A stretch of DNA of 64,000 bases from Candidatus Thiodiazotropha sp. (GCA_040507225.1 JBEVVG010000001.1:337054-401053); one strand, 5' to 3'; counted from the first letter of the stretch, positions 1-61,736 are shown. Notes: a model not told the origin generated them from the letters alone. Numbers and translations are program-made.

Positions 1-349
1 TTGCGCAGTTGGTCGTGATCAATGGCAGAAAGATACCCAGGGAGCGGAACAGTCCCGGGCTGAACTTCTTCAGGGTCATCTCCACCAACTGCACGGCGCT
101 GGCAATCACCGCGATATACGCGATAAGGCGCAGGAACTCGATCTCGAAGGCCACCAGAACCAGGTTGATCAGGTAGGCGCAAACCGAACTGACCAGCATC
201 ACGAACATGGTGGCCAGACCCATGGGCACGGCGGTGTTGAGTTTTCCGGATACACCGAGGAAAGGGCACAGACCTAAAAAAAGGGCCAAGACAAAGTTGT
301 TCGCCAGGACCGCGTTTAAAAATATGAAGCTGAGTGATTCTGTTGCCAT
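1..349 (-). CDS. rnfA: Rnf complex subunit A, N-terminal 116 codons only (3' end lies beyond the window edge)
   Basis: Absent from the ORF track because it runs off the edge. Reverse-complement translation from the ATG at 349-347 gives [52 protein letters not shown]...[11 protein letters not shown], a typical RnfA/RsxA N-terminus. It lies 100 nt downstream of rnfE on the same strand. Confidence 0.85.
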
Positions 350-359
350 GGCATTTACA

Positions 360-444
360 AGTTTTGAGTTATCGTGTGCGCTGCACGCACGCCTGGACTT
401 AGAAAAAAGTTTTGTTCGCTGAGCGAGTTCCTCAACTCAAAACT
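360..444. repeat. 11-bp inverted repeat in the rnfE-rnfA spacer
   Basis: agttttgagtt (360-370) is the exact reverse complement of aactcaaaact (434-444). The 63-nt loop contains a nested gtgcg...cgcac hairpin. Confidence 0.65.
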
Positions 445-449
445 CGAAG

Positions 450-1097
450 TCATCGTGTTTCCTCCACCGTCTGCAGCGCCGTCCGCTCTTTGCGCTGTTT
501 CATCCATTCAAATAGCAGCAACCACACCCCCAGCACAATGAAGCCTCCCGCCGGGAGTACCATCACCACCCAGGGTTCGAAACGGGGCCCGAACAGGTCG
601 ACACCGAACAGGCTTCCAGCGCCGAGCACTTCACGGACCATGCCCAGGCAGAGCAGGGCGAAGGTGAAACCAATGCCCATACCCAGGGCGTTGGTCAATG
701 CCTTGACCGGGGGGTTACGCGAGGCGTAGGCCTCGGCACGACCCAGGATCATGCAATTGACCACGATCAACTGGATAAAAGCGCCCAGTGCGTTGTAGAG
801 ATCCAGGGAGATCGCCTGAATGGTGTAGTCGACGATGGTGACAAATGTGGCGATGATCACGATGTAGGTGGCGATCCGCACCTGCTTGGGGATACTGCGA
901 CGCAACAGAGAGATCAGCGCGCCGGATGCGAGTAGTACGAAGGTGGTGGCCAGGCCCATCGCCAGGGCATTGATGGCGGAGTTCGTTACCGCCAGTACCG
1001 GGCACATTCCGAGGAGCATGACGAACACGGGGTTCTCCCGCCAGAGACCTTCGCTGAAGGTCTCCCAGGTAATGCTGTCATTGGTGTTCTTGGCCAT
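450..1097 (-). CDS. rnfE: Rnf complex subunit E
   Basis: 215-aa polytopic membrane ORF. ...WRENPVFVMLLGMCPVLAVT... matches the RnfE/RsxE family. Operon context. Confidence 0.9.
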   Translation of the reverse strand: MAKNTNDSITWETFSEGLWRENPVFVMLLGMCPVLAVTNSAINALAMGLATTFVLLASGALISLLRRSIPKQVRIATYIVIIATFVTIVDYTIQAISLDLYNALGAFIQLIVVNCMILGRAEAYASRNPPVKALTNALGMGIGFTFALLCLGMVREVLGAGSLFGVDLFGPRFEPWVVMVLPAGGFIVLGVWLLLFEWMKQRKERTALQTVEETR

Positions 1098-1206
1098 ATT
1101 GCAATCGTCCGCCTGGAAACGAAATTAATAACAATGTTGTGTCGAAGATGCCTTGCTGCGGGTCAACCGATCGGTCATGAGTCCATCTTCGCTCGGCTCT
1201 CTGTGA

Positions 1207-1905
1207 TCAGGGATTGGCATCGGCAGCACCTGTCTGGAGTTTCTGGATCTGTGGAAACAACATCGGCAAAACATGCTTGGCCGACTGGTTCAGGGCCTTA
1301 CCGACGGCTTTCGAGGAGATCGTGGCGCCTGATATGGCGTCGATCTCCCAGGGGTTGCGCTTGGTCCCGTGTTTGACCGTGACGATGTCGTGGGCCAGGT
1401 CGCTGCCGTCATCATTGAGTCGGGCATCGAGTTGCTCGAAATTGGCGACGAAGTCGGCATCATGAATGATCTTGTCGCCCAGGCCCGGGGTTTCGGCCAG
1501 TTTCAACACCTTGATGCCACGCACGCACTGGCACTCGGGATCATATCCGTACAGCAGGTGTACCAGGTCTGCATAACCCTGTGCAGCGGCATTGGTGGCG
1601 ATGCCGAGGAGTTGTCCATCGGCGTCGTAACCGGCATACACCGGAATGCCATCGCTGGGTGCATCACTGTCCGCTTCGCTCAGTCCCTGTTCGGAAATCA
1701 TGAAATTTCGCTTGCTCACCGCACCGGGTATCACCTGGAATACCGCCGCCTCGATGGCGCGGCGCTGGTTGTCTGCGATGATCGGCTTGGTCAGTTGATA
1801 GGTCAGCACCACGAGAAAGCCTGAGAGCATTGCGATACCCACCAGGGTACGGATCATCGGCCCGGCCGGGGTGGTCGGTTGCCGGGTGGCTTCGGTACTG
1901 CTCAT
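1207..1905 (-). CDS. rnfG: Rnf complex subunit G (FMN-binding)
   Basis: 232 aa with an N-terminal TM helix and the SGATISS flavinylation motif near the C-terminus. 4-nt ATGA overlap with the rnfD stop. Confidence 0.85.
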   Translation of the reverse strand: MSSTEATRQPTTPAGPMIRTLVGIAMLSGFLVVLTYQLTKPIIADNQRRAIEAAVFQVIPGAVSKRNFMISEQGLSEADSDAPSDGIPVYAGYDADGQLLGIATNAAAQGYADLVHLLYGYDPECQCVRGIKVLKLAETPGLGDKIIHDADFVANFEQLDARLNDDGSDLAHDIVTVKHGTKRNPWEIDAISGATISSKAVGKALNQSAKHVLPMLFPQIQKLQTGAADANP

Positions 1906-2951
1906 TTGCCCGCCCTCTGTGCGCCAAATACCCGTGGTTGGGTGAGTTGATCAATCAGCGGGGTGGCCGCGTTACCCAGCAGGATGGCATACATCACGCC
2001 TTCGGTGAGACCGCCGAACAGGCGTATGACCACGGTGAGAACTCCGATCAGCAATGCATAGATGATCACACCCAGCGGGGTGACCGGGGAGCCCACCATG
2101 TCGCTGGCCATGAACCAGGCGCCGAGCATCAGACCTCCGGAACAGAGGACGAAGAGGGGGTCGGGATACTGCGCCGGGTCGATCAGGTAGAAGATACCCG
2201 AGGTTCCGGCCGCGCCGACCATTACCATCACCGGGATACGCCAGTCGAGCATGCGGCGAAATGCCAGGTAGAGCCCACACAGCAGGATCAACAGGGCGGA
2301 AGTCTCCCCGGCGGATCCGGCCGTGGTGCCCAGCAACAGATCCATCAGATCAGCCTGGATGCCTTCGAATTTCTGCATGGCCAGGGGCGTGGCCCCGCTG
2401 AAGGCATCCACCTTTACCGTGGAGACCCAGTCGGCGATCGCAGGGGGCTGAAGGAATGGTGGTGTCAGGGTTGTGGGGACGAACTGGGTAAAGCGTCCCT
2501 CGAACAAGGCGGGGGTCCAGGTAGTGATTGCGACCGGAAAAGCGGCCTGGACGAAAGCCCGGCCGATCAATGCCGGGTTCATGGCGTTCATGCCCAGGCC
2601 GCCGAACAGAGCCTTGCCCATGGCAATGCCTACGAAACCAGCCACCATACCCATCCAAAGCGGGAATCCGGGGGGCAGGGTCAGGGCCAGCAACAGACCG
2701 GTGATCACCGCCGACCAGTCGCCAATGGAACTGGGTTGTCCGCTGAGGCGGTTGAACAGCCGTTCACTCCCCAGACAGGTTGCTGTCACCACCAGTATCA
2801 GGGCCAGGGCGCTGAGGCCAAACTGCCACACGGTAAAGGCGCAAATCGGTGCCAGGGCATAGACCACGTTGCGCATGATCCGCACCACATCGTCCCCGGC
2901 ATGGGCGTGGGGTGAGGTGCGCAGCTCGATGGTGGGTTTCTTTCGTATCAT
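1902..2951 (-). CDS. rnfD: Rnf complex subunit D
   Basis: 349-aa multi-TM ORF with the FSGATPL flavin-attachment motif, typical of RnfD/NqrB-like proteins. Confidence 0.9.
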   Translation of the reverse strand: MIRKKPTIELRTSPHAHAGDDVVRIMRNVVYALAPICAFTVWQFGLSALALILVVTATCLGSERLFNRLSGQPSSIGDWSAVITGLLLALTLPPGFPLWMGMVAGFVGIAMGKALFGGLGMNAMNPALIGRAFVQAAFPVAITTWTPALFEGRFTQFVPTTLTPPFLQPPAIADWVSTVKVDAFSGATPLAMQKFEGIQADLMDLLLGTTAGSAGETSALLILLCGLYLAFRRMLDWRIPVMVMVGAAGTSGIFYLIDPAQYPDPLFVLCSGGLMLGAWFMASDMVGSPVTPLGVIIYALLIGVLTVVIRLFGGLTEGVMYAILLGNAATPLIDQLTQPRVFGAQRAGK

Positions 2952-2995
2952 CAGTAATCGTTGCCTAGTTCAACGCGGCATGTTTTTCATTGCAT

Positions 2996-3160
2996 AAAGC
3001 TGTGAGCAAAGCGAACACAACCCATTCAAAACACATAACTTAAAATTTTCTGGTTCTCACGCAGAGCGTGGGATCGAGTCGGTAGTTGGCCGGAGTTCAT
3101 TCGTTCCGACGCAGAGTGTGGGAATAAGGCAAAAAGCCGTGAGCAAAGCGAACACATCCA
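2996..3160. repeat. Short intergenic repeats in the rnfC-rnfD spacer
   Basis: aaagc(t/c)gtgagcaaagcgaacaca occurs at 2996-3019 and 3133-3156. cgcagag(c/t)gtggga occurs at 3060-3073 and 3110-3123. The 10-mer aactcaaaac at 3174-3183 recurs at 434-443. Confidence 0.7.
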
Positions 3161-3192
3161 ATTAAAAACTAAGAACTCAAAACCAAAAACTC

Positions 3193-4533
3193 TCATGTCT
3201 TCTGCTCCCGATTGATCGCCTTGGCAATCCGAAAATACTGCACCAATGGAATGTTGGAGGGGCAGACATAAGAGCAGCAACCGCACTCGAAGCAGTTGTT
3301 GAGGCTGTAATCGTCCGCCATCTGCTCGTAGCGTCGTTTGGCTGCGAGCTGTCCCAGCATCGACGGGTTGAGATGCATCGGGCAGGCCTGCACGCAGCGG
3401 GAACAGCGAATGCAAGGCCAGATCCTGTGACTCTCCTCTTCGATGGACGGCTCGCTGAGAACCAGCAGCCCGGAGGTCCCTTTGCTGACCGGAGTCTCCA
3501 TGGCGGAGACCGCGGAACCCATCATCGGACCGCCGAGAATGAACTCGGTGCGGGTGCCTTCGTAGCCTACCTGATCCAGGATGTGGCGGATCGGCGTGCC
3601 CAGGGGTACCAGATAGTTGCCCGGTTTGAGGATTCCGGGTCCGGCTACAGTGATGACCCGTTCGATCAGGCCCTGACCCGCGGGCAGCAGATCACCCAAT
3701 GCCGCGAGGGTGCCGACATTGTTGACCACCACACCCACATCGGCGGGCAGTCCGCCGGTGGGTACCTCGCGGTCCAGCACCGACTTGATCAGCATCTTCT
3801 CCGAACCCTGGGGATATTTGGTCTCGACCACCTCGACGCGTATCGAACTTCCCGGGCTGAGCTCGCCGCGCAGCACCTCCACGGCGTTCATCTTGTTGTC
3901 TTCGATGCCGATGATCGCCTGCTGGGTGCCGGTGGCACGCATGGCATAGCGGATACCCCGAATCAGCGCCTTGGGATATTCGAGCATCATGCGATGATCG
4001 CAGGTCAGATAGGGTTCGCACTCACAACCATTGATCACCAGGGTATCGACCGGTTTGTCGGGAGGCAGGGTGAGCTTCATATGGGATGGGAAGGCGGCGC
4101 CGCCCAGACCCACCATACCGGACTCCTGGATTGCCTGGATGATCTGCTCCGGGGTATGTTCACTCATATCCCGGGGATTGGACCAGAGAATCTCCTGGGT
4201 GGAGCCTTCATAGACGTCGATGACGATCGCCCGGGTCTTGGGTCCTTTAGCGGAGGGCATCAATTCTATATCCCTTACACGCCCGGTGGCCGGGGCGTGC
4301 AAAGGTACCGAAAAATTCCCGTCGGCCCGTGCTATGGGCTCGCCGCGGACCACTTCCTGGCCTTTCTGGACCAGTGGTATCGCAGGTTTGCCGATGTGCT
4401 GGTCCAGCGGCAGTACCAGCTGCGCGGGGAAGGGCAAACGTCGGATCGGTTTATCCGCCGTATCCTTGTGATAGGGCGGATGGATACCGTGGGTGAAGCC
4501 TTTTTGCCCAAACAGCAGATTGAACAATCCCAT
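3193..4533 (-). CDS. rnfC: Rnf complex subunit C (short form)
   Basis: 446 aa. Has the GMVGLGGAAFPS nucleotide-binding motif and two 4Fe-4S motifs, CIRCSRCVQACP and CFECGCCSYVCP. Confidence 0.9.
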   Translation of the reverse strand: MGLFNLLFGQKGFTHGIHPPYHKDTADKPIRRLPFPAQLVLPLDQHIGKPAIPLVQKGQEVVRGEPIARADGNFSVPLHAPATGRVRDIELMPSAKGPKTRAIVIDVYEGSTQEILWSNPRDMSEHTPEQIIQAIQESGMVGLGGAAFPSHMKLTLPPDKPVDTLVINGCECEPYLTCDHRMMLEYPKALIRGIRYAMRATGTQQAIIGIEDNKMNAVEVLRGELSPGSSIRVEVVETKYPQGSEKMLIKSVLDREVPTGGLPADVGVVVNNVGTLAALGDLLPAGQGLIERVITVAGPGILKPGNYLVPLGTPIRHILDQVGYEGTRTEFILGGPMMGSAVSAMETPVSKGTSGLLVLSEPSIEEESHRIWPCIRCSRCVQACPMHLNPSMLGQLAAKRRYEQMADDYSLNNCFECGCCSYVCPSNIPLVQYFRIAKAINREQKT

Positions 4534-4550
4534 AGTTTCAGATCCGGATC

Positions 4551-4576
4551 TCAGGCGGAGCCAGAACTCCGCCTGA
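4551..4576 (-). other. Perfect 10-bp stem hairpin between the PFOR gene and rnfC (no U-tract)
   Basis: tcaggcggag-ccagaa-ctccgcctga. It lies 42 nt after the PFOR stop codon and is not followed by a T-run on the transcribed strand. Confidence 0.5.
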
Positions 4577-4617
4577 TGCAGACAGGTTATCGGTACGACA
4601 AACGACAGGTGCAGGCA

Positions 4618-7600
4618 TTACTGGAACTTCGCCGCCCGCTTGACCAGTTTGTCCAGATCCTTTTCCGAGGGGTTCCAGGGTGTACCGGGATGAATGCAGC
4701 CGGCGGTGCACTTCTCGGCCGCTTTGACGATATCCTTGTAAGCGCCGCCCTTGGGATCGAGGATCTCGGCCTTCTTATCGCCGTTGTAGGCAAAAATCTT
4801 GGGATTGATCTCGATGCACTCGTCGCAGGCGGTACACTCCGGAGTCTCGATCCAGACCGGCTCGTAGTCACCCATGTCGGCGCCATTGCCGCCACCCGCC
4901 GCGGAGGCGGCGCCTGCACCATTACCGTTGGCCGACAGGGAGCCGGCGAGGGCGTTGGCGTTACCACTGGCGGCCAGCGAAAGCAGGGTGGAACTCAGGC
5001 GGTTGGCCATGTCGATCTTGGCTTGGTCGACCAGGGCGTTCACGTCCAGCTTGTTCAGCTCACCCGCGATGCCCTTGAGTTGATGCCAGAACTGACGACG
5101 CTCGATGCAGGAGTTGGCGATCTCCTGTGCGCAGATGACCCGCATCAGGCGGTTTTTGCCGTCGGTGGCCCAGATGTACGGGAACTTGCCTTCCCGGTCG
5201 TCCTCGTCCAGTTCGATGAACTCATGCATCGGCACCATGTCGTCGTTCCAGGTCTCCGGCGGCGCTTTGCGGAACTGCTTGCGGAAGCGACCCTCGGTAA
5301 GGGCGAAATCGGCGAAGGTCATGGGCACCTCCAGTTTCTCCTCCTCGCCCTTTTCGTTCTGGTAGCTGAGCGAATAGACCGGCCAATCGGTCTCCAGTGA
5401 GGGGTTGCCTTCCAGGTCGATGCACTCCTCGATTGATTCCCCAGCATCCGGGTCATACTTGATCAGGGGATAAGCGCGACTCTCCACCGCCATTTTCGAC
5501 TGTTCGTAGGCCCGATCGTCGCCCACGCCGTGTTCCGGCGGACACACCGCATAGATGTTGAACAGGGCCGGACGGCGGCTGTTGAGTCCGTCGATATAGC
5601 CCTCGATCAGGTGAGTGGCATTGCTGATCGCACTCTGCAGCACGTAGGTGGTGCGGTGGGCGATACCGATCAGGGAAACCTCCTTGCGGATTTCCTCTTT
5701 ACCTTTCCAGGCCTTGCCATAGGGGCTCATGTCCGCCACCTGGCCGATGTAGCCCGAGGTGCAGGCCTGGCCGCCGGTGTTGGAGTAGACCTGGGTGTCA
5801 AGCACCAGAACCTTGATCGGGTGGCCGGAAGCCAGGGCTCGGGAAAGGTTCTGGAAACCGATGTCGTACATGGCGCCGTCACCGCCGATGGAGACCACCG
5901 GAGGGCACAGTAACCATTCATCATCGGTGAACTGTTTCCAGTTGAACTGTTTGAAGAACGCATCATGCTCGGCCGGGTTGTACTTGCCGGCCAGTTCCAG
6001 TTCCGCCTTGCGGATGGCAGAGAAGCCATCGGCCATCTTGTGCATGTGCCCTTCGAACAGACCCATCGCCATGGAGGGACTGTCCTGGAACAGGTGGCTG
6101 GCCCAGGGGAAGGGGTAGGGGTTGTAGGGGAAGGTGGAGCCCCACACGGAGGTACAACCGGTGGAGTTGACGATGCCCATCTCGGCGCGGCCGTTATTGG
6201 TCACGCCTTCCAGGTAGCGCCACTTCAGGTCTCTCAGCTGATCCAGCAGACGGGTGACCCACTGCAGCCATTCGCGGTCGATGACGGTCTTTTCGTGACC
6301 GGCATCCAGGCTGTCGCTGAGACCGGACAGGGTCAGGTCGCCATCGCTGTCGGTAGCCTGGGCGATCGCGCTGGCGCTGCTCAGGTCGACCCCGGAGGCC
6401 AGTTTCAGACGCACGTGCTGTTCGAGTTGTTCGATCAGCTTCTCGATTCGCGCCACCTCGGTCTTCACCCGGGGCTGCATCAGCGCGGTCACGGTGCTGG
6501 TAAAGAGATGGATGATGGTCTTCTCGCCACAGCCCAGACAGGCGCCGTCACCGCAGACCATGGCGCTGTAGTTGTCCTTGTCCAGCAGCAGGGTATGCAG
6601 CGCGCCGATTTTCTCGTCCAGGTCGTCGATGCGGTTGAAGCTGGCATCTGTGGTGGGCAGGTCGAGCCACAGGGACCAGTCACTGCGCATCTTCTCGATC
6701 GCCGCTTCGTCCTGATGGGTGGCGAGCAGCGCCTCATCTTCACAGACGTCCACGCATTCCATACAGCCTTTACAGGTGTAGGGATTGACGGTGATCGAGA
6801 ACAGCCCGCCACTGCCCTTGTTCTTCTTCTCCAGGTTGTTCCAGTAGGGTTTGGTGATGGAGAAATCGAAGTCCACCAGCGCCTGCAGGAAGAGGCCGAA
6901 CTCCTCTTCGAGCACCGGGCGTTGTGCATCCTCCAGTTCAGCGGCTGAGAGGGTCTCGAGTACCGCCTGGTCAAGCAGGACCCGTACATCCGCCGCTTCA
7001 CCGGCCTCGTTGAGCAATTCACGCAGACGTTTTTCGACGTTGCGGCTCTCGCGACGCAGGTGTTGGGTTGGACGGCCGCCGGTTTCAATGCGGTTGATCG
7101 CGGTGTTGAAAACATCGCTGACTTTGTTGACCAGACCCGGGATGGCGCTGTCGGGACAGATGGAGTAGCAGTCACCGCAGGCGGTGCAGTTCTCCGCCAC
7201 CCACTTCGGATAGTCGAAGCGGATCTGGGTCATGTCGCGGAACACACCGGTGGAGGCCGGCATCAGAGAGAGGGCCTGGTAGGGGTCCGCCAGGTTGTCG
7301 GAGCCTTTACCGGTGGCGTAGAAGCTGCCGGTCTGTTCCCAGAAACGGTGTACGTCTGAGATACCGCCGTCGGACTGGGGCAGCTGCTTGAGCATGATCG
7401 GCAGGGCCGGGGCCTTCTTCTCAGGCTGAGCGGCGACCGCGCCGACCACCTTCTCGGCGATCTCATGGATTTCGTCGAAACCGCGACGTACCACCCGCAG
7501 GTTGTCCTCGACCACCCGGCGGCCCTTGCTGCCGAACTTGTGCTCCAGCTGGTCCTCGATGGCGGCGAACAGTTTCTTCTCGTCCAGGCCGGCCATCTGC

Positions 7601-9555
7601 ATCAGCGGTGAGCCGGCAAAGAAGGCGCCCTGGAAGGCGTTGCCCTGCATACGCAGCTGCAGTTCCGGGTTGGAGGCCTCTTCGCGGGCGATCTTGAAAC
7701 CGTCCACGTAGAACACATGGATTTCGTTGTCGACCACCTGTTGCTGCATCCAGCGGGGAAAGCTTTGCCATACCTCATCCGCGCTGCCCAGGTTGGACTG
7801 AATGATCAGGGTGCCGCCTTTCTTCAGACCACTCAGGGGGTTGGAGTGGCCGAACACATTCGGGTCGGGGCTCAGCACCACGTCCACATAGTGGTATTCG
7901 CAGTTGAGCGGGATCGGGGTGGGCGCGGCCGCCAGGTAGTAGGTGGTCGGCTGGCCCTTCTTCTCGGAACCGTACTTCGGGTTGGCCTTGATCTCGTAAC
8001 CCAACAGATCGTAGAGGGTCATGACCAGGTTCTTACCGGTGGTGATAGCGCCCCAGCCACCCACCGAGTGCATGCGCACGGTGATCGAGCCTTCCGGCAT
8101 CAGATTGGGATTCTCGGAGCCGCGCACCGCCATCTCGCCGATCTTGGGATAGGCCTCCAGCAGCTTCTGGATGTGAATCTCCTGCTTGGGAGTCGCGGCG
8201 TCGCGTACGAAGTCGATACCCAGATAGAAGAACTTACGGTGCGGACCCTCGGGCAGCATATTCTCCACCGCACCGATCAGCGCCTCGGGCTGCAGATCAC
8301 GGGAACCCAGTCCATACGCGCCCGAGTACAGATTGGGCACTTCGCTGAGACGCTCGTAGGTGTCGTACTGCGGATACGGCAGGTCCTGCTTGTTGGCGAC
8401 CGCCTGACCGTTCTCGATGCACTTGGTGACCGCGGCCCGGGCCTCGCGCATCAGCGGCAGGTCTTCCGCCAACGGCTGGTCGGTACGTTCCAGCACCACC
8501 ACGCCTTTCTTGCCTTTGAGTATTTTGCCCAGCAGGTCGCCGGGGAAGGGGCGGAACATGGTCAGGTCGATGACACCCACCTTGAGTTTGCGGGTCTTTT
8601 CCAGATAGTCCGCAACGCCGTGGGCCTGGACCACCATCGAGCCCATGCCGACGATCAGGTAGTCGGCCTTTTCCGCCTTGTAGGCGCCGATTCGGTTGTA
8701 ACGGCGCCCGGTCAACTCATAGAACTCGTCCATCACCTGGTCGGTGATCTCCGCGATGTGCTGGAAAAAATAGGGACGTTGCGCTGCGGTGGTCTGCATG
8801 TACGCGTCCTGGTTCTGCACCGAGCCGGAGAGCATGGGGTTGTCCACATCCCAGATCGCAGGCACCCGGCGGCGGGTTTCGCCGAACAGCAGTTTCTGGG
8901 AAGGGGTGGGGCATTCGATCTCGTCATCGGGACGGCCGAGGAACTCGGTGATCATCTCCCGCTCGGGTACCTGCAGGGGCTCGATCAGATGGGTGGTGAG
9001 AAAACCGTCCTGGGCTACCGCGGCGGGCGTCAGGGAGAGTTCAGCGATCTTGCGGCCGATCAGGTTGAGGTCCGCCGCGCCTTGGGCGTTGTTGGCGAAG
9101 ACCTGGAAAAAACCGGTGTCGTCGATACAGTGGAAATCGTCATGCCCGCAGTGCACGTTGAGCGACGCCTTGGTGATGGCGCGGCAGCCGATATTCAACA
9201 CATAGGGCAGACGCTTGCCCACCGCCGCGTAGAGCGACTCGTGCATGAAGGCCACGCCCTGGGCGGAGGAGAAGTTGGTGGCGCGCAGTCCTGTCATGGA
9301 CATGCCTGCGGTCACCGCGGCGGCGGCGTGTTCGGACTCCGGTTCGATGAAGATCAGCGAACGATCGGAGATGTTGACGTGACCCTTGGCGGTCTCCTCG
9401 GCCCAGTACTCACCCATTTGGGTCGATGGTGTGATCGGGTATGCACCGGCGGCGTCAGAGGCCTCGCGCTCGCACATGATGACCGCGCCGTTGCCGTCCA
9501 TCGCCATGCGGATACCGGGATACTTGAAGGTCTTTTCGTCTTTCTTACCGAACAT
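4618..9555 (-). CDS. nifJ: Pyruvate:ferredoxin (flavodoxin) oxidoreductase, unusually long form (about 1645 aa) with a C-terminal ferredoxin-like module
   Basis: N-terminus ...MDGNGAVIMCEREASDAAGAYPITPSTQMGEYW is PFOR domain I. Also present: GGWGAITTGKNL (domain III), CTACGDCYSICP and CKGCMECVDVCE (ferredoxin domain), CGDGACLGCGEK, NSTGCTSVWG and GGDGAMYDIGFQ (TPP domain). The tail is CTACDECIEINP...CTAGCIHPG. The ORF-track start at 9594 is TTG. I prefer the ATG at 9555 (MFGKKDEK...), but this is not certain. Confidence 0.9.
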   Translation of the reverse strand: MFGKKDEKTFKYPGIRMAMDGNGAVIMCEREASDAAGAYPITPSTQMGEYWAEETAKGHVNISDRSLIFIEPESEHAAAAVTAGMSMTGLRATNFSSAQGVAFMHESLYAAVGKRLPYVLNIGCRAITKASLNVHCGHDDFHCIDDTGFFQVFANNAQGAADLNLIGRKIAELSLTPAAVAQDGFLTTHLIEPLQVPEREMITEFLGRPDDEIECPTPSQKLLFGETRRRVPAIWDVDNPMLSGSVQNQDAYMQTTAAQRPYFFQHIAEITDQVMDEFYELTGRRYNRIGAYKAEKADYLIVGMGSMVVQAHGVADYLEKTRKLKVGVIDLTMFRPFPGDLLGKILKGKKGVVVLERTDQPLAEDLPLMREARAAVTKCIENGQAVANKQDLPYPQYDTYERLSEVPNLYSGAYGLGSRDLQPEALIGAVENMLPEGPHRKFFYLGIDFVRDAATPKQEIHIQKLLEAYPKIGEMAVRGSENPNLMPEGSITVRMHSVGGWGAITTGKNLVMTLYDLLGYEIKANPKYGSEKKGQPTTYYLAAAPTPIPLNCEYHYVDVVLSPDPNVFGHSNPLSGLKKGGTLIIQSNLGSADEVWQSFPRWMQQQVVDNEIHVFYVDGFKIAREEASNPELQLRMQGNAFQGAFFAGSPLMQMAGLDEKKLFAAIEDQLEHKFGSKGRRVVEDNLRVVRRGFDEIHEIAEKVVGAVAAQPEKKAPALPIMLKQLPQSDGGISDVHRFWEQTGSFYATGKGSDNLADPYQALSLMPASTGVFRDMTQIRFDYPKWVAENCTACGDCYSICPDSAIPGLVNKVSDVFNTAINRIETGGRPTQHLRRESRNVEKRLRELLNEAGEAADVRVLLDQAVLETLSAAELEDAQRPVLEEEFGLFLQALVDFDFSITKPYWNNLEKKNKGSGGLFSITVNPYTCKGCMECVDVCEDEALLATHQDEAAIEKMRSDWSLWLDLPTTDASFNRIDDLDEKIGALHTLLLDKDNYSAMVCGDGACLGCGEKTIIHLFTSTVTALMQPRVKTEVARIEKLIEQLEQHVRLKLASGVDLSSASAIAQATDSDGDLTLSGLSDSLDAGHEKTVIDREWLQWVTRLLDQLRDLKWRYLEGVTNNGRAEMGIVNSTGCTSVWGSTFPYNPYPFPWASHLFQDSPSMAMGLFEGHMHKMADGFSAIRKAELELAGKYNPAEHDAFFKQFNWKQFTDDEWLLCPPVVSIGGDGAMYDIGFQNLSRALASGHPIKVLVLDTQVYSNTGGQACTSGYIGQVADMSPYGKAWKGKEEIRKEVSLIGIAHRTTYVLQSAISNATHLIEGYIDGLNSRRPALFNIYAVCPPEHGVGDDRAYEQSKMAVESRAYPLIKYDPDAGESIEECIDLEGNPSLETDWPVYSLSYQNEKGEEEKLEVPMTFADFALTEGRFRKQFRKAPPETWNDDMVPMHEFIELDEDDREGKFPYIWATDGKNRLMRVICAQEIANSCIERRQFWHQLKGIAGELNKLDVNALVDQAKIDMANRLSSTLLSLAASGNANALAGSLSANGNGAGAASAAGGGNGADMGDYEPVWIETPECTACDECIEINPKIFAYNGDKKAEILDPKGGAYKDIVKAAEKCTAGCIHPGTPWNPSEKDLDKLVKRAAKFQ

Positions 9556-9637
9556 GGAACACTTCTCTTGTTTTGCTAGGGTGTAAACAGTCAAAAGGGG
9601 CTCGGCTGACTGACATCTGACAGCGCGAACCCCTCAA

Positions 9638-9658
9638 GGTTGATCTCGGGGATCAACC
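9638..9658 (-). other. 8-bp stem hairpin between rnfB and the PFOR gene
   Basis: ggttgatc-tcggg-gatcaacc, with no U-tract. Confidence 0.4.
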
Positions 9659-9659
9659 C

Positions 9660-10538
9660 TTACATGGGTAGGGCTTCACTGCGAATAATCCGTTTGGCCT
9701 GGGATCCTTTGAGCACGCCCTGTACATCGTCGAGCCACACGATGGCTCCGGTCGGACAACGTTCGGTGGCGACCCGTGAGGCCAATCCATTCTTACTGTA
9801 GTCGATAACCGCCAGGTTGTTTTGGATTGTGATCAGGCCCTCGGGAGAGTCCTTCGCGCATCGCTCGCAGGCGGTGCAGGCGACCTCGCAATCATTCTCC
9901 GCGGTATCGCCATGCTCCAGGTTTTTGCAGGCCACCCACAAGCGGTGGTCGGCGGGTTGAATGGAGAACAATCCTTTCGGGCAGACGTCCACACAATCCT
10001 CGCAGGCGGTACATTTGCTGGCATCCACGACCGGCAGGCCATGACGGTCCATGCTGATGGCATCGAACTCACAGACTTCCGCGCAGTCGGCCAGGCCGAT
10101 ACAGCCCCAGGTGCAGCCTTTCGGCCCTCCAGAGACCACCGCGGCAGCCCGGCAGGAGGCGAGACCGTCGTAGTGGGCCTTCATGCGCGCCACGTGACTG
10201 CCGCCGGCACAGGCCAGGCGGGCCACCCGCTTGATCACGCTGCCGCTGTCGACGCCCAGGTAGTCGGCGATTTCAGTGATGGCATCGGAACTGCTGACGG
10301 TGCATTGGGCGGGAGTCACCTTGCCGGCAATCAGCGCCTCGGCGAAGGGTCGGCAACCGGCGTTGCCGCAGGCGCCGCAGTTGGTGGCGGGCAACATACT
10401 CTCGATGGCGTCGATGCGCGGGTCCTCGAATACCCAGAGCTTCTTGTTGGCGAACGCCAACAGGGAGGAGAGCAACAAACCGAGCACGCCCATGAATAGG
10501 ATGGCGCTTGATACATTGAGAGCAATATCTATATCCAT
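9660..10538 (-). CDS. rnfB: Rnf complex subunit B (long poly-ferredoxin form)
   Basis: 292 aa with an N-terminal membrane anchor, the CGACGNAGC motif and several further Cys clusters (CTWGCIGLADCAEVC, CTACEDCVDVCP, CEVACTACERC, CPTG). Confidence 0.85.
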   Translation of the reverse strand: MDIDIALNVSSAILFMGVLGLLLSSLLAFANKKLWVFEDPRIDAIESMLPATNCGACGNAGCRPFAEALIAGKVTPAQCTVSSSDAITEIADYLGVDSGSVIKRVARLACAGGSHVARMKAHYDGLASCRAAAVVSGGPKGCTWGCIGLADCAEVCEFDAISMDRHGLPVVDASKCTACEDCVDVCPKGLFSIQPADHRLWVACKNLEHGDTAENDCEVACTACERCAKDSPEGLITIQNNLAVIDYSKNGLASRVATERCPTGAIVWLDDVQGVLKGSQAKRIIRSEALPM

Positions 10539-11008
10539 TCCGTCACCTGCGATTCATGAACACTTCACGAAAGTGAAACCTCACTAAGTGTAATGTTGAC
10601 GCTAGTATTGATCTACGGAATGGAGTCAATAGAAAGTATTGAATTTTGTAAGTAAAAGGAATCCGCTTCACATGCCTTCGGTCGTTGCGCGAAATGTCCT
10701 GCGGAGATGGAGCGGCCAAGCCGCACTCCGCATATTAATACAGGTATAGACGGTGATTGCCAAGCTACAAGTCTCCCGAATGGGGGATAGGGTTTAGAAA
10801 AGCGCATGTCCGGTCTTTTCTCCTGAGGCAGAATTTGTCCCCGCCAGCCGACAAGGCATCTGAGCGGCCGGCGGTTGCCGATTTCGAACCAGCCTCTTAC
10901 GAGTTGTTACAAGCTGTTTCTGTTCATCCCGGGGGACTCCGCCCGGCGCGTATAATGTTCAATAGCATCCGCGATTCGTGCTGGATGAGACAAGGGAGAT
11001 GATCCGTC

Positions 11009-12274
11009 ATGAAACCGAAATTGCGTCCACTGTCCCATGCCCTGTCCCTGATCACCCTGACAGGCCTGGCGCTGGCACCTGCTCTTGTGACGGCTGGGGA
11101 ATCATCGGCAAGCACCTTCAAAAAGCCGGGTTTTTATTCGCAGGACTTCCGATTGCTGCCGGAAATCGCCGTAATGGGTTACTACGATGACAACATCTAT
11201 GCGACCAATCGGGCACGGGAGTCCGATTTCATCACCCAGGTTACTCCCAGCCTGAGTGTCGACTCATTGTGGGACAGACACAGACTGGCGGTCGACGCCG
11301 GGGCGCGGTTGGGACGTTATGCGGATGCCACATCAGAAGACTATGACGATTTCTGGTTGAGCGGTGACGGAGACTATGAGATCGACGGGATCGACAAACT
11401 CTACGTCAGCGGCGGCTACAGCCGCAATCATGAGGGCCGGGACTCCAAGGAATCCGGCAGTCTGCAGATCGACGAGCCCACTACCTACGATGTGCTCGAG
11501 GGCCAATTGGGTTGGCATCGGCAGGCGGACCGTTCCTCGGTTAAGTTGGGGCTCACCTTTGAACAACTCGATTACGACAATGTGGGAAGTCTTTACAATG
11601 ATGACCGCGATCGGGATGTGAGCGGTTTGGGACTGCGTTTGAGCCACGACTATTCCGCGGATTTCCAACTCTACGCTCAGGGCGTGATCAACCGGCGGGA
11701 CTACGTGGATGAACTTGATCAGTACGGATATGCCAAGGATTCCCAGGGTTTCAACGGGCTGATCGGCCTGACGCGCCGTTTCTCGAAGGCGAATCGTATC
11801 GATGCCTACATCGGACGTTTCTACCAGGACTACGAGGATTCACGATTCGATGAGGTCAATGATTGGAACTATGGCGTGGATCTGCGATGGTATCCGGTCG
11901 CCAGCACCCAATTTAAAGCGCAACTCGAACGTACCCAGAACGAAACCACGGAAATCGGTTCCTCCAGCTATCTCTACACTGCCTGGGATTTTCAGCTTGA
12001 CCAGAAACTGGCCAGCAACACGGTCGGATATGTGGGTTTCAATTACGCGATCGCCGAATTCCAGGACGTCGGACGGGAGGACAAGACCCAGTCCCTGAGT
12101 CTGGGGATGAAATATTATGCCAATCCCTGGGTCATGCTGAGCGGCGGCTTCCGCAGAGTCGATAATGATTCCAATGACGTGAACAAGGTTTCGCCGATCC
12201 GGGACAGCTATGACTTCAAGCAGAACATGGTGTTTCTGAATCTGCAGGCGCGCCTGGCGCCCAAAGCGCCCTGA
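11009..12274 (+). CDS. Outer-membrane beta-barrel protein (PF10082 / putative beta-barrel porin-2-like)
   Basis: 421 aa with a signal peptide (...LTGLALAPALVTAGES). The GYYDDNIYATN motif and the alternating D/Y/G-rich strand pattern resemble that family. The family assignment is from memory. Confidence 0.6.
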   Translation: MKPKLRPLSHALSLITLTGLALAPALVTAGESSASTFKKPGFYSQDFRLLPEIAVMGYYDDNIYATNRARESDFITQVTPSLSVDSLWDRHRLAVDAGARLGRYADATSEDYDDFWLSGDGDYEIDGIDKLYVSGGYSRNHEGRDSKESGSLQIDEPTTYDVLEGQLGWHRQADRSSVKLGLTFEQLDYDNVGSLYNDDRDRDVSGLGLRLSHDYSADFQLYAQGVINRRDYVDELDQYGYAKDSQGFNGLIGLTRRFSKANRIDAYIGRFYQDYEDSRFDEVNDWNYGVDLRWYPVASTQFKAQLERTQNETTEIGSSSYLYTAWDFQLDQKLASNTVGYVGFNYAIAEFQDVGREDKTQSLSLGMKYYANPWVMLSGGFRRVDNDSNDVNKVSPIRDSYDFKQNMVFLNLQARLAPKAP

Positions 12275-12370
12275 GCACCTGGCAAATCCATGCCCGGGTA
12301 GTTTCGTTCCAGGGCCTAGGGTTGGATGGGTGGATGCGGCGCCAACAAGATAACACCCGATGGTGTTGGG

Positions 12371-12398
12371 CGGCCGGGTTACTAACGGCCGGGTTACT
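12371..12398. repeat. 13-nt tandem direct repeat (period 15) between convergent genes
   Basis: cggccgggttact occurs at 12371-12383 and 12386-12398. Confidence 0.7.
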
Positions 12399-12439
12399 CA
12401 CCAGACACCAAGTCGATGAACCGGTACCGGGTGGGCTCC

Positions 12440-12769
12440 TCAGCGATTGCGACCGCCGGGACCGTTACCGCCGCCTCCAGGGCCGTTGCCCCCGCCTGGT
12501 CCCTGAGCGGCGCCTCCGTTGGCCGAACTGGAGCCCCGGTTCTGGGAAGCACGATGACGAGACTCGTAGCCCATCCCGAACCAGGTCCAATCCCCATTTC
12601 TGTCCTCATCCTGCTGCTGCCAGTCCTCCTGCCAGCTTTGCATGTTGTCCTGAGTGTCGGACGGGGGAGTCTGCAGGGCCGGGTTTTCGGGTTCGTCGGC
12701 AGCCCGCAGGCCGCCGACATGCAGCAACATGGTTCCTATCAGAATGATTTGAATGACCCGGCTGTACAT
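12440..12769 (-). CDS. Secreted low-complexity protein (acidic/Gln/Trp-rich, Gly-Asn-Pro tail), paralogue of the upstream gene
   Basis: 109 aa with a signal-peptide-like N-terminus (MYSRVIQIILIGTMLLHVGGLRAA). Contains WQEDWQQQDEDRNGDWTWFGMGYESR and ends in GGGNGPGGGGNGPGGRNR. It shares its architecture with 12825-13448. The SD is weak, so confidence is moderate. Confidence 0.55.
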   Translation of the reverse strand: MYSRVIQIILIGTMLLHVGGLRAADEPENPALQTPPSDTQDNMQSWQEDWQQQDEDRNGDWTWFGMGYESRHRASQNRGSSSANGGAAQGPGGGNGPGGGGNGPGGRNR

Positions 12770-12824
12770 ACCCGTTTGGTTCCGAAATGCTCTACTGCAG
12801 TTCAGGACACGACATCAAAGGCGG

Positions 12825-13448
12825 TTAACGCCGACCGTTGCCACTGCCGCCGCCGTGTCCACCGCTCTGGGCGCCACCCTGGCTCATACCGGCGCTGGCT
12901 GATCCGCCACTGCCGCGACTGTTGGCTCCCATGCTGCGATACATTGAACCACTGGTGCTGAAACCCTGTCCAGCCGAGCGGTTGCCAAACTGGTAAGGAT
13001 CCTCGAATCCGCTCTCATCGCGGTCATCGACACTCAGACGATCCCGGTCGCGTTGGCGAATCTGCTCATAGTCGGGACTCTGATCCTGTTGCTGATCCTG
13101 GTCCCGGGTCCGGTCCCGATTCTGGCTGGGCGTGTGATCCGTGGCCAGGGCCGGGTCTCCGACCGCCGAAGTCCCGTCATCGCCGCTGGAGACATCCCCT
13201 GCAGATTCCAGACGGGTGCGCTGTGCCTGGGCGTCTTCATTTTCTCCCACCCGGTGTCTCAGGCGCTGAGATTCCCCGGCATTGCGAAACATCTGCTGAG
13301 TCCCGCTGGCGGGTTCGGGTGATTCGACCACTGTTTCATCGGGGGTTTCCGGTACACTGGTCTCCTCCGGCCAGGCCTGTCCACTGACCAGGGGGAGGGT
13401 CATGGCGAGTGCCATGGAAAGGTGCAATACTTTGCGTGATGTTTTCAT
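12825..13448 (-). CDS. Secreted intrinsically disordered D/Q/R/S/G-rich protein
   Basis: 207 aa. An AGGAG SD lies 8 nt upstream of the ATG. Clear signal peptide (MKTSRKVLHLSMALAMTLPLVSGQA). No recognisable enzymatic domain. C-terminal tail is ...GGAQSGGHGGGSGNGRR. Confidence 0.65.
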   Translation of the reverse strand: MKTSRKVLHLSMALAMTLPLVSGQAWPEETSVPETPDETVVESPEPASGTQQMFRNAGESQRLRHRVGENEDAQAQRTRLESAGDVSSGDDGTSAVGDPALATDHTPSQNRDRTRDQDQQQDQSPDYEQIRQRDRDRLSVDDRDESGFEDPYQFGNRSAGQGFSTSGSMYRSMGANSRGSGGSASAGMSQGGAQSGGHGGGSGNGRR

Positions 13449-13537
13449 CTTGGTGCTCCTGTTCGAGTCTTTCTGTTTGCCTCACTTACAGCCTAGAAGC
13501 CGGCTATTTCCGGGAGATTTCCGTGAGGGGGCCAAGT

Positions 13538-13553
13538 GTTACAGGTTGTTTCA
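13538..13553. promoter_or_regulatory. Candidate OmpR-family operator: GTTACA-n4-GTTTCA direct half-sites 10 bp apart
   Basis: gtGTTACAggttGTTTCAcc sits in the 180-bp divergent region between the 207-aa gene and the response regulator. The half-sites resemble the GTTACA/GAAACA elements in E. coli OmpR sites. Confidence 0.35.
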
Positions 13554-13628
13554 CCTGTCTTGTGGAGAAACTGCCAGGGCGCTTAACCTGAAGCCTGACT
13601 TCACATGCGTGCAAACCCATGAGCCGAA

Positions 13629-14354
13629 ATGGATAAACACAAGATTCTGGTGGTGGACGATGATCCCAAGCTGCTGGATCTGGTCATCAAGTTCCTGACC
13701 CGGGAGGGGTTTCAGGTGGCGGGTGTCGGCAGCGGCCAGGCGATGGATCAGTATCTGGTGCAGCATCCGGTCCACCTCATCGTTCTGGATCTGATGTTGC
13801 CGGGGGAGGATGGCCTGTCCATTGCCCGGCGCCTGCGGGCCAACGGGAGTATTCCGATCCTCATGCTCTCCGCCCGGGGCGAGGATATCGACCGTATCAT
13901 CGGTCTCGAGGTTGGGGCGGATGACTATCTTGCCAAACCGTTCAATCCCCGGGAACTCTCGGCCCGGGTCAGGGCAATACTCCGGCGCACCGAGGAGCTG
14001 AATCAGAATCCCGTCAACAGTGGTGCCGGTGGGACCTCGGGTCAGTACCGGTTTGGTGACTACCTGGTCAATCTGACCACCCAATCGATTTCACGCGACG
14101 GGGAGGCGGTGGGTTTGACCGCCGGGGAGTTTTCCCTCCTGGAGGCTTTCGTCAAGCATCCCAACCGGGTCCTGAGTCGTGACCATTTGATCGAGTTGAT
14201 AAAGGGTTACGAGCGTTCCCCCTTCGATCGGAGCATCGATGTCAGGGTCACCCGATTACGCAGAAAACTGGAAAGCAACCCGGATCAGCCCCAGTTTATC
14301 CGCACGGTCTGGGGACGTGGATACATCTTCACTCCCCAGGGTAGCCAGGTGTGA
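13629..14354 (+). CDS. ompR: OmpR-family (OmpR-like) response regulator
   Basis: 241 aa. KILVVDDD...LDLMLPGEDGLSI.RRLR...GADDYL.KPFNPRELSARVRAILRR and the C-terminal ...SIDV.V.RLRRKLE..P..P.FI.TVWG.GY.F are collinear with E. coli OmpR along the whole length. Confidence 0.85.
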   Translation: MDKHKILVVDDDPKLLDLVIKFLTREGFQVAGVGSGQAMDQYLVQHPVHLIVLDLMLPGEDGLSIARRLRANGSIPILMLSARGEDIDRIIGLEVGADDYLAKPFNPRELSARVRAILRRTEELNQNPVNSGAGGTSGQYRFGDYLVNLTTQSISRDGEAVGLTAGEFSLLEAFVKHPNRVLSRDHLIELIKGYERSPFDRSIDVRVTRLRRKLESNPDQPQFIRTVWGRGYIFTPQGSQV

Positions 14355-15661: not shown

Positions 15662-15788
15662 AGCCCGGCAGGCCTGAATGCGTGATTATGTGAATTCCGT
15701 TCATTATTTTCGGACTTGATATAATATTAGAGGGATAACAATGGGTTAACTGCGCTGATGGGCCTGCCGTCAACCCCTCTCATGCACG

Positions 15789-15847
15789 GTTTTCAGTCGT
15801 TTGTTTCAATTGTTTCAGATCGACGTTTCAGGGAAACCCCTTGAAAC
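15789..15847 (+). promoter_or_regulatory. Cluster of GTTTCA hexamers upstream of the DUF2202 gene
   Basis: GTTTTCA at 15789-95. GTTTCA at 15803-08, 15812-17 and 15825-30. Inverted TGAAAC at 15842-47. The cluster lies 110-170 bp upstream of the ATG at 15958. Confidence 0.35.
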
Positions 15848-15957
15848 AGTATCTCGCCAGCCACTGAGTATCATTTTCAGTATTGGGCAACCTGTCCTGC
15901 CACTCCGCCTGGAATACCGGGTGGAACCTCAACCCTGAATCAACTGGAGCACACCTC

Positions 15958-22566: not shown

Positions 22567-22904
22567 GGCGCGACTCCTGTCGAGGGAACGGGAGACGGTT
22601 CGATAGGGGCCATAGGTGACCTATTAATATGGAGCTCTGCATCATTTTGGGGCGTCGTGGTCTCAGGTGGTAAGTAATGCCTTATCTGTTTACTAAGGTT
22701 TAGCTGATTTTTCCGCACTGCACTATTTTTTTTATCAAACCTATCTATTGATATTTTTTAGAAAAAATTCTTGATCTTTTCACTATGCTTTAACGCAGTG
22801 CACAATAAAACAACCTGCCTCAATGCAAGGCAGATATACGCAAAGCCCTCTGGGGATGCACTCCAGAGGTGCGGACAGACCGAAGATCGAGGAGATACAC
22901 GACC

Positions 22905-24518: not shown

Positions 24519-24548
24519 GTCATACCACACAAAGAGATGGAGAAGATA

Positions 24549-61678: not shown

Positions 61679-61736
61679 TGCCCCGATCCTGATATCTTTC
61701 ACCGTTTGTCCTGAACCGGGAATTAGCTTTCTGACG

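Follow-up and report, generated by a model that had tools for sequence, protein, structure and literature searches.

A giant PFOR-like protein with a predicted tethered ferredoxin is encoded between rnfB and rnfC in an Rnf gene cluster of Candidatus Thiodiazotropha and its relatives

The Rnf complex reversibly couples electron transfer between ferredoxin and NAD+ to ion translocation, with RnfB as its ferredoxin side, and pyruvate:ferredoxin oxidoreductase (PFOR) works with ferredoxin to interconvert, reversibly, pyruvate plus coenzyme A (CoA) and acetyl-CoA plus CO2. The two enzymes are thought to communicate through the free ferredoxin pool. Here we describe a stretch of DNA of 64,000 nucleotides (nt) from Candidatus Thiodiazotropha sp. 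(GCA_040507225.1, JBEVVG010000001.1:337054-401053), referred to below as the window, at one end of which a cluster of rnf genes encloses the gene for a giant PFOR-like protein, here called POR. We read the region, with moderate confidence, as one module, an Rnf with a clostridial-type RnfB together with a dedicated PFOR that carries its own tethered ferredoxin; the module would be reversible, and would favor pyruvate synthesis driven by NADH and the ion gradient.

The arrangement itself is not undescribed: the genome paper on the Solemya velum symbiont (Dmytrenko et al., 2014, PMC4287430) notes in one sentence that a PFOR is present in rnf2 (rnfBCDGEA), and treats the gene as an ordinary PFOR that gives electrons to Rnf, with pyruvate as donor. 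The POR of that symbiont (locus L055) is 70% identical to the window protein, belongs to the same family and is followed by the same order of genes from rnfC to rnfA, but its size, inserts, and tethered ferredoxin, and the breadth of its conservation, are unmentioned there. In the draft genome of the symbiont (L055, 8295-13671), rnfB appears to be divided between two open reading frames (ORFs) and the POR ORF stops early, at 1,556 amino acids (aa); these splits are probably sequencing frameshifts. The genome paper on Allochromatium vinosum reports three rnf clusters, with a role that is "entirely unclear" (PMC3368242). In the searchable literature, which covers few subscription journals, we found nothing on how large POR is, on its inserts or tethered ferredoxin, on how widely the linkage extends, or on the degenerate relatives and the small ORF that are set out below, and no functional study of the Rnf-PFOR arrangement; the S. 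velum sentence was its sole mention.

Seven cistrons lie on the same strand in positions 1-10538, as an earlier note on this DNA had claimed, and the spacer lengths that it gave agree exactly with our ORF calls and translations (104 nt, or 65 nt with a TTG start, then 84, 241, -4, 109, and 100 nt). That strand is the minus strand, and so it is for every feature of the locus given below. All six Rnf subunit genes were identified in the one cluster with Pfam and NCBIfam/TIGRFAM. The first, rnfB (9660-10538), encodes a 292-aa protein of the long polyferredoxin type (PF04060 and Fer4; TIGR01944, 87.8 bits, cut-off 68.7), with an N-terminal membrane helix, an FeS domain, and several 4Fe-4S motifs. 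Beyond a spacer at 9556-9659 comes the POR gene (4618-9555), the 1,645-aa product of which was identified by Pfam, PDB alignments, and Foldseek as a giant fused, PFOR-like 2-oxoacid:ferredoxin oxidoreductase. Its start is the ATG at 9555, which is preceded by a GAGAAG ribosome-binding site and begins an N terminus, MFGKK, that homologues share; an alternative in-frame TTG upstream, at 9594, would give a protein of 1,658 aa. The NADH- and flavin mononucleotide (FMN)-binding subunit RnfC (3193-4533; 446 aa; TIGR01945, 507 bits, cut-off 246) has RnfC_N, Complex1_51K, and SLBB domains and a Fer4 dicluster of two 4Fe-4S motifs, and matches Clostridium tetanomorphum RnfC (7ZC6_C) with an E value of 1.8e-111. 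It is followed by rnfD (1902-2951; 349 aa; PF03116; TIGR01946, 286.5 bits, cut-off 207), with the SGAT flavinylation motif in DAFSGATP, and by rnfG (1207-1905; 232 aa), which overlaps rnfD by 4 nt. The rnfG product has an FMN_bind domain (PF04205) and SGAT in AISGATIS, and its TIGR01947 score of 97.9 bits is slightly below the cut-off of 102. The cluster continues with rnfE (450-1097; 215 aa; PF02508; TIGR01948, 234 bits, cut-off 213) and with rnfA, which is cut by the window edge so that only the N-terminal 116 aa are present (1-349; PF02508; TIGR01943, 148 bits on the fragment).

The Rnf of the window resembles those of the anaerobes Acetobacterium woodii (9ERI) and C. tetanomorphum (7ZC6), which are encoded in the order rnfCDGEAB, in its six subunits, a long RnfB that can be aligned from end to end, a short RnfC, and SGAT motifs in RnfD and RnfG. 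The RnfB of the window falls within the ~270 to 330 aa, with several C-terminal 4Fe-4S domains, that are expected of the long type, and its residues 14-266 align with residues 10-261 of A. woodii RnfB (9ERI_B; E 2e-54, 188 bits) and residues 13-270 with residues 8-264 of C. tetanomorphum RnfB (7ZC6_B; E 1e-48, 169 bits), whereas the alignment with RnfB of Azotobacter vinelandii Rnf1 is confined to residues 12-98. The Azotobacter/Rhodobacter-type Rnf (rnfABCDGEH) and the enteric Rsx share homologous core subunits with this cluster, but their RnfB is short, their gene order is another, and no oxidoreductase gene is embedded. The earlier note had called the Rnf anaerobe-type; this description fits the long RnfB, which matches its counterparts in anaerobes over the full length, but not the gene order, which is not rnfCDGEAB but a circular permutation of it, rnfB-(por)-rnfCDGEA, with rnfB first and not last. 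RnfC is about equally similar to the proteins of A. woodii, C. tetanomorphum, and A. vinelandii. Further differences from the anaerobe clusters are the 4.9-kb oxidoreductase gene between rnfB and rnfC, the host, a sulfur-oxidizing gammaproteobacterium, and, in relatives of the window, the addition of a small Cys-rich membrane ORF after rnfA.

In both sequence and fold, POR is best matched in the PDB by PFORs from Moorella thermoacetica (6CIN, 6CIQ) and Desulfovibrio africanus (1B0P), with 6CIQ as the top Foldseek match of the model (E 3e-20). Pfam identifies POR_N, PFOR_II, POR (gamma), Fer4 (the internal ferredoxin domain), TPP_enzyme_C, and Fer4_13, which gives the domain order of a PFOR. 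POR shares with the homodimeric fused enzymes (NifJ/Por; 1B0P, 6CIN) the order I, II, III, (IV), V ferredoxin, VI thiamine pyrophosphate (TPP), as well as the TPP, CoA-domain, substrate, and three-cluster motifs. It differs from them in being ~450 aa longer and encoded inside an rnf gene cluster, and in the addition of ~45 aa after domain II, helical inserts in domains V and VI, a C-terminal extension, a linker, and a fourth cluster domain. No catalytic signature is missing from POR when it is aligned to 6CIN and 1B0P or scored in a motif table; those kept are YPITP (residues 39-43), the TPP-N1' Glu in EPESEHAA, R125, the glycine motif of the CoA domain, the Mg-TPP motif GGDGAMYDIG...DTQVYSNTGGQ, which includes N1259, the two domain-V cluster motifs (C790/793/796/800 and C928/931/934/938), and the ligands of the proximal cluster (C1006, C1009, C1134, C1338). 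Judged by these motifs, POR is catalytically intact, but it is no canonical NifJ.

In D. africanus PFOR (1B0P), pyruvate is bound by T31, R114, and N996, with I123 and I843 lining the methyl pocket. These three binding residues align with T42, R125, and N1259 of POR, and the two isoleucines are replaced by V134 and V1137; because the pocket is conserved in this way, with Val for Ile, the site fits pyruvate or another small 2-oxoacid. The enzyme might instead act on another 2-oxoacid, such as 2-oxobutyrate, 2-oxoglutarate, or an aromatic or branched one, or chiefly supply electrons for nitrogen fixation as NifJ does, and the labeling of many members by NCBI as just "2-oxoacid:acceptor oxidoreductase family protein" would accommodate this. 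Against TIGR02176, the curated PFOR equivalog, POR scores 395.8 bits, less than half of the cut-off of 911.35, and since it falls so far under that cut-off, its substrate is uncertain. The valines make the pocket slightly roomier than that of D. africanus, but it is still small and hydrophobic, the presumed pyruvate-binding residues are conserved, and a phosphoenolpyruvate (PEP) synthase, which uses pyruvate, is a recurrent downstream neighbor. Thiodiazotropha are diazotrophs, but a role in nitrogen fixation is given low weight, as neither the scanned ORFs of the window nor the neighborhoods of the related loci that we examined include nif genes. We therefore regard a substrate other than pyruvate, or a NifJ-like function, as very unlikely.

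The additional segments of POR were located by alignment and in an AlphaFold2 (AF2) model built from 65 diverse sequences (mean predicted local distance difference test score [pLDDT] 87, predicted TM-score [pTM] 0.80). A model of residues 760-1645 from a shallow alignment of 11 sequences, at least 67% identical, had a mean pLDDT of 47 and was discarded. The 6CIN alignment and the AF2 model place a helical bundle, insert b (residues ~813-912; 6820-7119), inside the internal ferredoxin domain, between its two [4Fe-4S] motifs, where C800 and C928 are separated by ~128 aa and query residues 815-914 stand against 6CIN residues 711-728, with ~85 aa extra; it is predicted as a 4-helix bundle with pLDDT >90. 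Insert c, of ~100 aa, is a long helical hairpin between C1009 and C1134 (residues ~1020-1118; 6202-6498), for which there is no counterpart in 6CIN or 1B0P; in the model it consists of a helix of ~46 residues and a return helix, with a tip of low confidence. The C-terminal extension, of ~190 aa, is modeled as a beta-rich domain, followed by the linker.

This linker (residues 1525-1563; 4867-4983) is of low complexity, with 32 of its 39 residues being Ala, Gly, Ser, or Asn, and composition, conservation, and pLDDT (31 to 49) all mark it as probably disordered. It leads to a single-cluster ferredoxin domain at the C terminus (residues 1564-1630; 4666-4866), identified by Fer4_13 (27.6 bits, cut-off 24.5), phmmer, and Foldseek, in which C1574, C1577, C1580, C1616, and C1620 form a CxxCxxC...C(x3)C pattern. 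Column conservation among 116 close homologues is 0.51 in the linker, the lowest of any region, and 0.82 in the ferredoxin domain. The closest described protein is ferredoxin I (Fd I) of D. africanus (1DAX/1FXR), to which the domain is 33% identical (phmmer E 5.5e-7), with every Cys in register, and the model, with pLDDT of 79 to 97 in this domain, superposes on 1FXR_A with a Foldseek TM-score (TMt) of 0.86 and a root mean square deviation of 0.7 Å over 58 columns. Fd I is a physiological acceptor of D. africanus PFOR. The Cys pattern and the fold are thus the same, but the ferredoxin that is a free protein in D. africanus is covalently tethered to the enzyme in POR. A predicted disordered linker that ends in a conserved ferredoxin domain is how tethered mobile carriers are usually built.

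Relatives were taken from a one-genome-per-species collection, in which POR relatives occur at at least 571 loci, and the best 80 of these were examined for context (L numbers below designate loci). Among them, rnfB is directly upstream of POR in all 73 loci with flanking sequence on that side, and rnfC is directly downstream in all 68 with flank on the other, one of which has a 5.4-kb insertion, with rnfD, rnfG, rnfE, and rnfA next; the gap between POR and rnfC is 20 nt or less in 19. Identities to the window rise and fall together, with r values of 0.96 for POR and RnfB and 0.91 for POR and RnfC. The closest locus is in a metagenome-assembled genome (MAG) of Thiodiazotropha, a group of symbionts of lucinid clams, with a POR that is 95% identical. 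The gammaproteobacterial carriers include Thiodiazotropha, Sedimenticola, tubeworm and Solemya symbionts, Thiohalomonadaceae, Chromatiaceae (Marichromatium, Thiocapsa, Allochromatium), Ectothiorhodospira, Thiothrix, and Shewanella atlantica; the betaproteobacterial ones are Sulfuritalea, Sulfurisoma, Gallionellales, and one methylophilaceae MAG. One Chromatiaceae MAG (L032, 2208-7154) has a second, divergent rnfA-C-D-G-E cluster (29 to 47% identity) immediately upstream of rnfB-POR.

More distant relatives were sought with the C-terminal half of POR as a profile against 1.84 billion cluster representatives, which yielded a far larger family of POR relatives of 1,400 to 1,780 aa. Nine clusters of less than 50% identity were inspected in their genomic context, and six of them have the order rnfB-X-rnfC (L082, L083, L085, L086, L088, L090), with genes that mostly overlap or abut; Deltaproteobacteria-type MAGs are among these. 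In a further cluster (L087), rnfB-X is followed by an IS1 insertion, and one further contig is too short for context. The arrangement is not unique to this strain, a doubt left by the earlier note, because the gene-neighborhood search finds rnfB-por-rnfC conserved over many loci and distant clusters; that note's proposal of a co-expressed Rnf-PFOR module now has support at the level of comparative genomics, from the conserved order, the gene overlaps, and the parallel identities. The ninth, a POR relative of 1,778 aa in a Leptospiraceae MAG (L084, 9001-17397), is not in an rnf cluster; the next gene encodes a 983-aa fusion of Fer4_20, Pyr_redox_2, NAD_binding_1, and DHODB_Fe-S_bind, a soluble Nfn/GltD-like ferredoxin:NAD(P) oxidoreductase. 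Here the connection to pyridine nucleotides seems to be made by another route, and from such gene content wiring to NAD(P)H seems to be general.

In about 50 of 59 distant representatives, alignment shows that YPITP, the TPP Glu, the GDG...N motif, and the four Cys of the proximal cluster are gone, while the eight domain-V cluster Cys are kept in all but two and the C-terminal ferredoxin is kept in several. Fast-evolving forms are over-represented among the 50% clusters from which this count was taken, and single motifs could be misaligned at 26 to 30% identity, but their joint loss is unlikely to be an artifact. In Pfam searches, TPP_enzyme_C is present in P0128, which is intact, and missing from P0122, P0130, P0157, P0147, and P0141. 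The degenerate representatives comprise P0122, P0130, P0157/P0282, P0134, P0147, P0141, and about 45 more, and L087 is also among the loci of this group. Degenerate forms occupy the slot between rnfB and rnfC in L085 and L086, and in L082, L083, and L090 the slot protein is partly degenerate and rnfA is followed by genes for a two-subunit KorAB-like enzyme and a protein of ~600 aa. The KorAB-like regions are at 9920-14577 in L082, 18080-22785 in L083, 18238-22944 in L090, and 1987-4871 in L088. The ~600-aa protein of L083 is homologous to POR 1148-1629 (29% identity, E 1e-62), a stretch that spans a TPP domain, degenerate in this protein, together with the C-terminal extension, the linker, and the ferredoxin. 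In a supplement on Endoriftia (PMC11636981), a gene labeled "PFOR-like ferredoxin" adjoins korAB; we considered this supplement as evidence for co-expression of rnf and PFOR-like genes and rejected it, since it lists only the KorA/KorB/"PFOR-like ferredoxin" trio and no rnf genes.

Judged from their residual motifs, the degenerate homologues are probably pseudo-enzymes that have been kept as electron wires or docking subunits, and this pattern suggests that the protein in the slot between rnfB and rnfC has a Rnf-linked role that survives the loss of catalysis. Because that role would outlast catalysis, physical coupling to Rnf is likelier for the intact enzyme of the window as well. A simpler explanation for the gene order would be co-regulation only, with a soluble PFOR that draws on the free ferredoxin or flavodoxin pool and a C-terminal ferredoxin that extends the internal wire and does not shuttle to RnfB. 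Canonical PFORs do use free ferredoxins, and the POR gene of the window is flanked by spacers of 84 to 104 nt with stable hairpins. The retention of degenerate homologues in the slot, with overlapping reading frames, is nevertheless hard to square with metabolic co-regulation; the disordered linker and conserved ferredoxin domain have the design of a mobile carrier; and a stand-alone homologue of the C-terminal module of POR accompanies KorAB in rnf clusters. Co-regulation without coupling is therefore, in our judgment, unlikely.

The spacers were examined for transcription signals. A consensus scan of positions 1-11200 found no sigma-70-like promoter, and terminator-like sites were no commoner than in shuffled sequences, with none in a spacer, which is weak negative evidence. 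Rfam, run over the whole window at gathering thresholds, gave no match, so there is no known riboswitch or leader. Upstream of rnfB, an alignment of six Thiodiazotropha-type loci revealed a conserved block of ~54 nt (10587-10640; AATACTTTCTATTGACTCCATTCCGTAGATCAATACTAGCGTCAACATTACACT) that is nearly invariant while the surrounding intergenic DNA is not, and in which AATACT occurs twice, ~33 nt apart. The block does not match the sigma-70 consensus, and is a candidate operon promoter or regulator-binding site. The rnfB-POR spacer has no cross-species block of this kind and is not conserved between species; it folds very stably (-37.4 kcal/mol, z -3.85), with two hairpins, the second of which ends in ...GAGCCCCUUUUGACUGUUU with a weak U-rich tail. 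The earlier note had held that the spacer hairpins lack U-tracts and that nothing there resembles a terminator; the scan agrees with the latter, but the former is not strictly true because of this tail.

The spacer between POR and rnfC folds with -27.9 kcal/mol (z -2.2), and contains, shortly past the stop codon of POR, a conserved GC-rich hairpin with no U-tract (4551-4576) that was found by spacer alignment and folding; it is present in the window, L001, L002, and L081, with a compensatory change in L004. This hairpin may act in mRNA stability or processing and so set the ratio of POR to Rnf, and attenuation or differential mRNA stability at the spacer hairpins is possible. The spacer between rnfC and rnfD (2952-3192) has no significant fold (z +0.65) and holds two tandem copies of a unit of ~137 nt, as seen from repeat families, with 83% identity between 2992-3045 and 3129-3182 and a further pair at 3060-3078 and 3110-3128; the core 18-mer of the repeat occurs in this spacer only within the 64 kb, and 36 of 60 related loci have a gap of 20 nt or less between rnfC and rnfD. 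The tandem repeat was considered as part of the conserved design and rejected as lineage-specific, being local and unconserved. Co-transcription of rnfB-por-rnfCDGEA is likely, given the shared strand, the lack of a consensus promoter and of terminator-like sites in the spacers, the conserved block found only before rnfB, and the overlapping genes of relatives; the strong hairpin with its weak U-rich tail between rnfB and por speaks against it.

If the genes act as one module, the tethered ferredoxin would swing back and forth from the distal cluster in POR's internal ferredoxin domain to the polyferredoxin arm of RnfB. Electrons would then pass in either direction from PFOR through the tethered ferredoxin, RnfB, RnfA/E, RnfG, and RnfD to RnfC and NAD(H), with the free ferredoxin pool unneeded, and the overall reaction would be pyruvate + CoA + NAD+ <-> acetyl-CoA + CO2 + NADH, coupled to ion translocation. 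In the direction that we favor, NADH and the ion gradient would power reductive carboxylation of the acetyl-CoA that comes from acetate or storage polyester, giving pyruvate, and PEP synthase, encoded downstream in many relatives, would carry pyruvate on to PEP; under anoxia, the module could reverse and conserve energy from pyruvate oxidation. The gap between the textbook potentials of about -500 mV and -320 mV is ~35 kJ per two electrons, which is of an order that Rnf can bridge with an ion gradient. The carriers, as sulfur oxidizers and purple sulfur bacteria, are not known to possess a direct low-potential reductant, and it is for this reason, together with PEP synthase as a recurrent neighbor, that we favor pyruvate synthesis.

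The PEP synthase gene, ppsA (1252 bits), usually with ppsR, immediately follows the rnf-por cluster on the same strand in ~17 loci from a range of taxa (L081, 19932-23180; also L002, L004, L005, L006, L013, L016, L035, L036, L038, L061, L069, L074, L076, L078, and L080), and ppsA-ppsR is downstream in every Thiodiazotropha locus with enough flank. The string of rnf-por and ppsA would correspond to the path acetyl-CoA -> pyruvate -> PEP. The opposite reading is that the module is mainly oxidative: during anoxic glycogen fermentation, PFOR would reduce the tethered ferredoxin and Rnf would reoxidize it with NAD+ and pump ions, with a gain in ATP as in clostridia and Thermotoga. Both PFOR and Rnf can work in either direction, the RnfB is of the type of fermenting and acetogenic anaerobes, and the carriers inhabit fluctuating oxic/anoxic habitats. 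In Sedimenticola, moreover, a peroxiredoxin gene (Redoxin/AhpC-TSA) lies between POR and rnfC (L011, 14014-14601; L015, 14098-14604); its product may protect an oxygen-sensitive enzyme, and the insertion suggests that such an enzyme is used at oxic/anoxic transitions. Gaps of 600 to 800 nt between POR and rnfC also occur in L006, L017, L019, and L022. Pyruvate as electron donor to Rnf is also how the S. velum paper reads the arrangement (PMC4287430). The ppsA-ppsR linkage points to gluconeogenic flow instead, and many carriers are autotrophs or photoassimilate acetate. Pyruvate synthase is classically known from such organisms (Chromatium). A predominantly oxidative role is thus possible but rather doubtful, and the two directions are compatible with each other.

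Several points weigh against a module for pyruvate synthesis, in addition to the score of POR below the PFOR equivalog cut-off. The locus set was chosen via POR similarity, and so speaks for POR-bearing loci. Genes past rnfA were seen in relatives only, as the window ends inside rnfA, with ppsA outside its view, and the ppsA linkage is absent from the Sedimenticola, Chromatiaceae, and Rhodocyclaceae loci, which have a gene for an FNR-like protein instead. The spacers of the window, at 84 to 241 nt, exceed those of many relatives; the structure in the rnfB-POR spacer could attenuate read-through, and the rnfC-rnfD repeat could hold a promoter. What the analysis shows is the gene content, the motifs, the modeled fold, and the conservation of the arrangement; co-transcription, docking on RnfB, direction, and substrate of the Rnf-PFOR module are what we infer from the sequences.

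A stronger reading, which we put forward only tentatively, is that the giant PFOR-like protein is a docked seventh subunit of a distinct class of Rnf. The supercomplex would be an ion-translocating pyruvate:NAD+ oxidoreductase, or a pyruvate synthase driven by NADH and the gradient, with the tethered ferredoxin as its internal shuttle. If this is true, the catalytically dead homologues would be a docking or electron-wire subunit that adapts KorAB-type enzymes, which have a tethered-ferredoxin protein of their own, to Rnf. With its own tethered ferredoxin and its position beside RnfB, POR suggests a hard-wired route between NADH, the membrane potential, and the low-potential acetyl-CoA/pyruvate couple. 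This touches an old question, namely, by what means purple sulfur bacteria and sulfur-oxidizing chemoautotrophs, major animal symbionts among them, power ferredoxin-dependent pyruvate synthesis and so can assimilate acetate or storage polyester under anaerobic conditions. The Rnf-PFOR hypothesis is directly testable, since some of the carriers can be cultured (Thiocapsa roseopersicina, Marichromatium gracile, Allochromatium species, Sedimenticola, Sulfurisoma, and Shewanella atlantica). If confirmed as such, the degenerate relatives in the slot would represent an enzyme turned accessory subunit of a respiratory complex. For annotation, the label "2-oxoacid:acceptor oxidoreductase family protein" should be read with caution, since it spans active and probably inactive proteins.

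A small ORF of 55 to 85 aa overlaps or abuts the rnfA stop in 56 related loci, among them L002 (14438-14635) and L081 (19688-19885). Its product has a single membrane helix and a tail rich in Cys, and carries the motif RHPEFGP (example, GCGKSCLCSGNSC). Searches against Pfam and NCBIfam, singly and with a set of 30 members, assigned it to no family, and the hits did not include NqrM (PF04400); the architecture recalls that of the Nqr maturation factor NqrM, with no sequence similarity detected. The product may serve this class of Rnf as an accessory or maturation factor not described before, and on the docked-subunit reading it would be a further factor of that kind. Elsewhere in the flanks, a gene for an FNR-like NAD-binding flavoprotein is downstream in 28 other loci, and a divergent LysR regulator gene is upstream of rnfB in 24.

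In the window, the glyoxylate-shunt genes aceK, aceB, and aceA are 10 to 15 kb from the operon, which we count in favor of the anabolic direction; the regions 20782-25871, 30021-31007, and 41631-42887 hold aceK (minus strand), malate synthase (plus), isocitrate lyase (plus), malate dehydrogenase (minus), and isocitrate dehydrogenase (plus). In Ca. T. endoloripes, aceK is also near the cluster (L081, 1-1762). A segment of ~6 kb between rnfB and the SLT transglycosylase gene (11009-16668) is shared with the closest relative, L001, and absent from other Thiodiazotropha loci; among its genes is one for a beta-barrel porin (BBP2_2) that is divergent from rnfB, and others encode a histidine kinase and a DUF2202 protein. 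Near the far end of the window, a 779-aa ORF on the minus strand (61596-63935) belongs to no Pfam family at E <= 1e-5.

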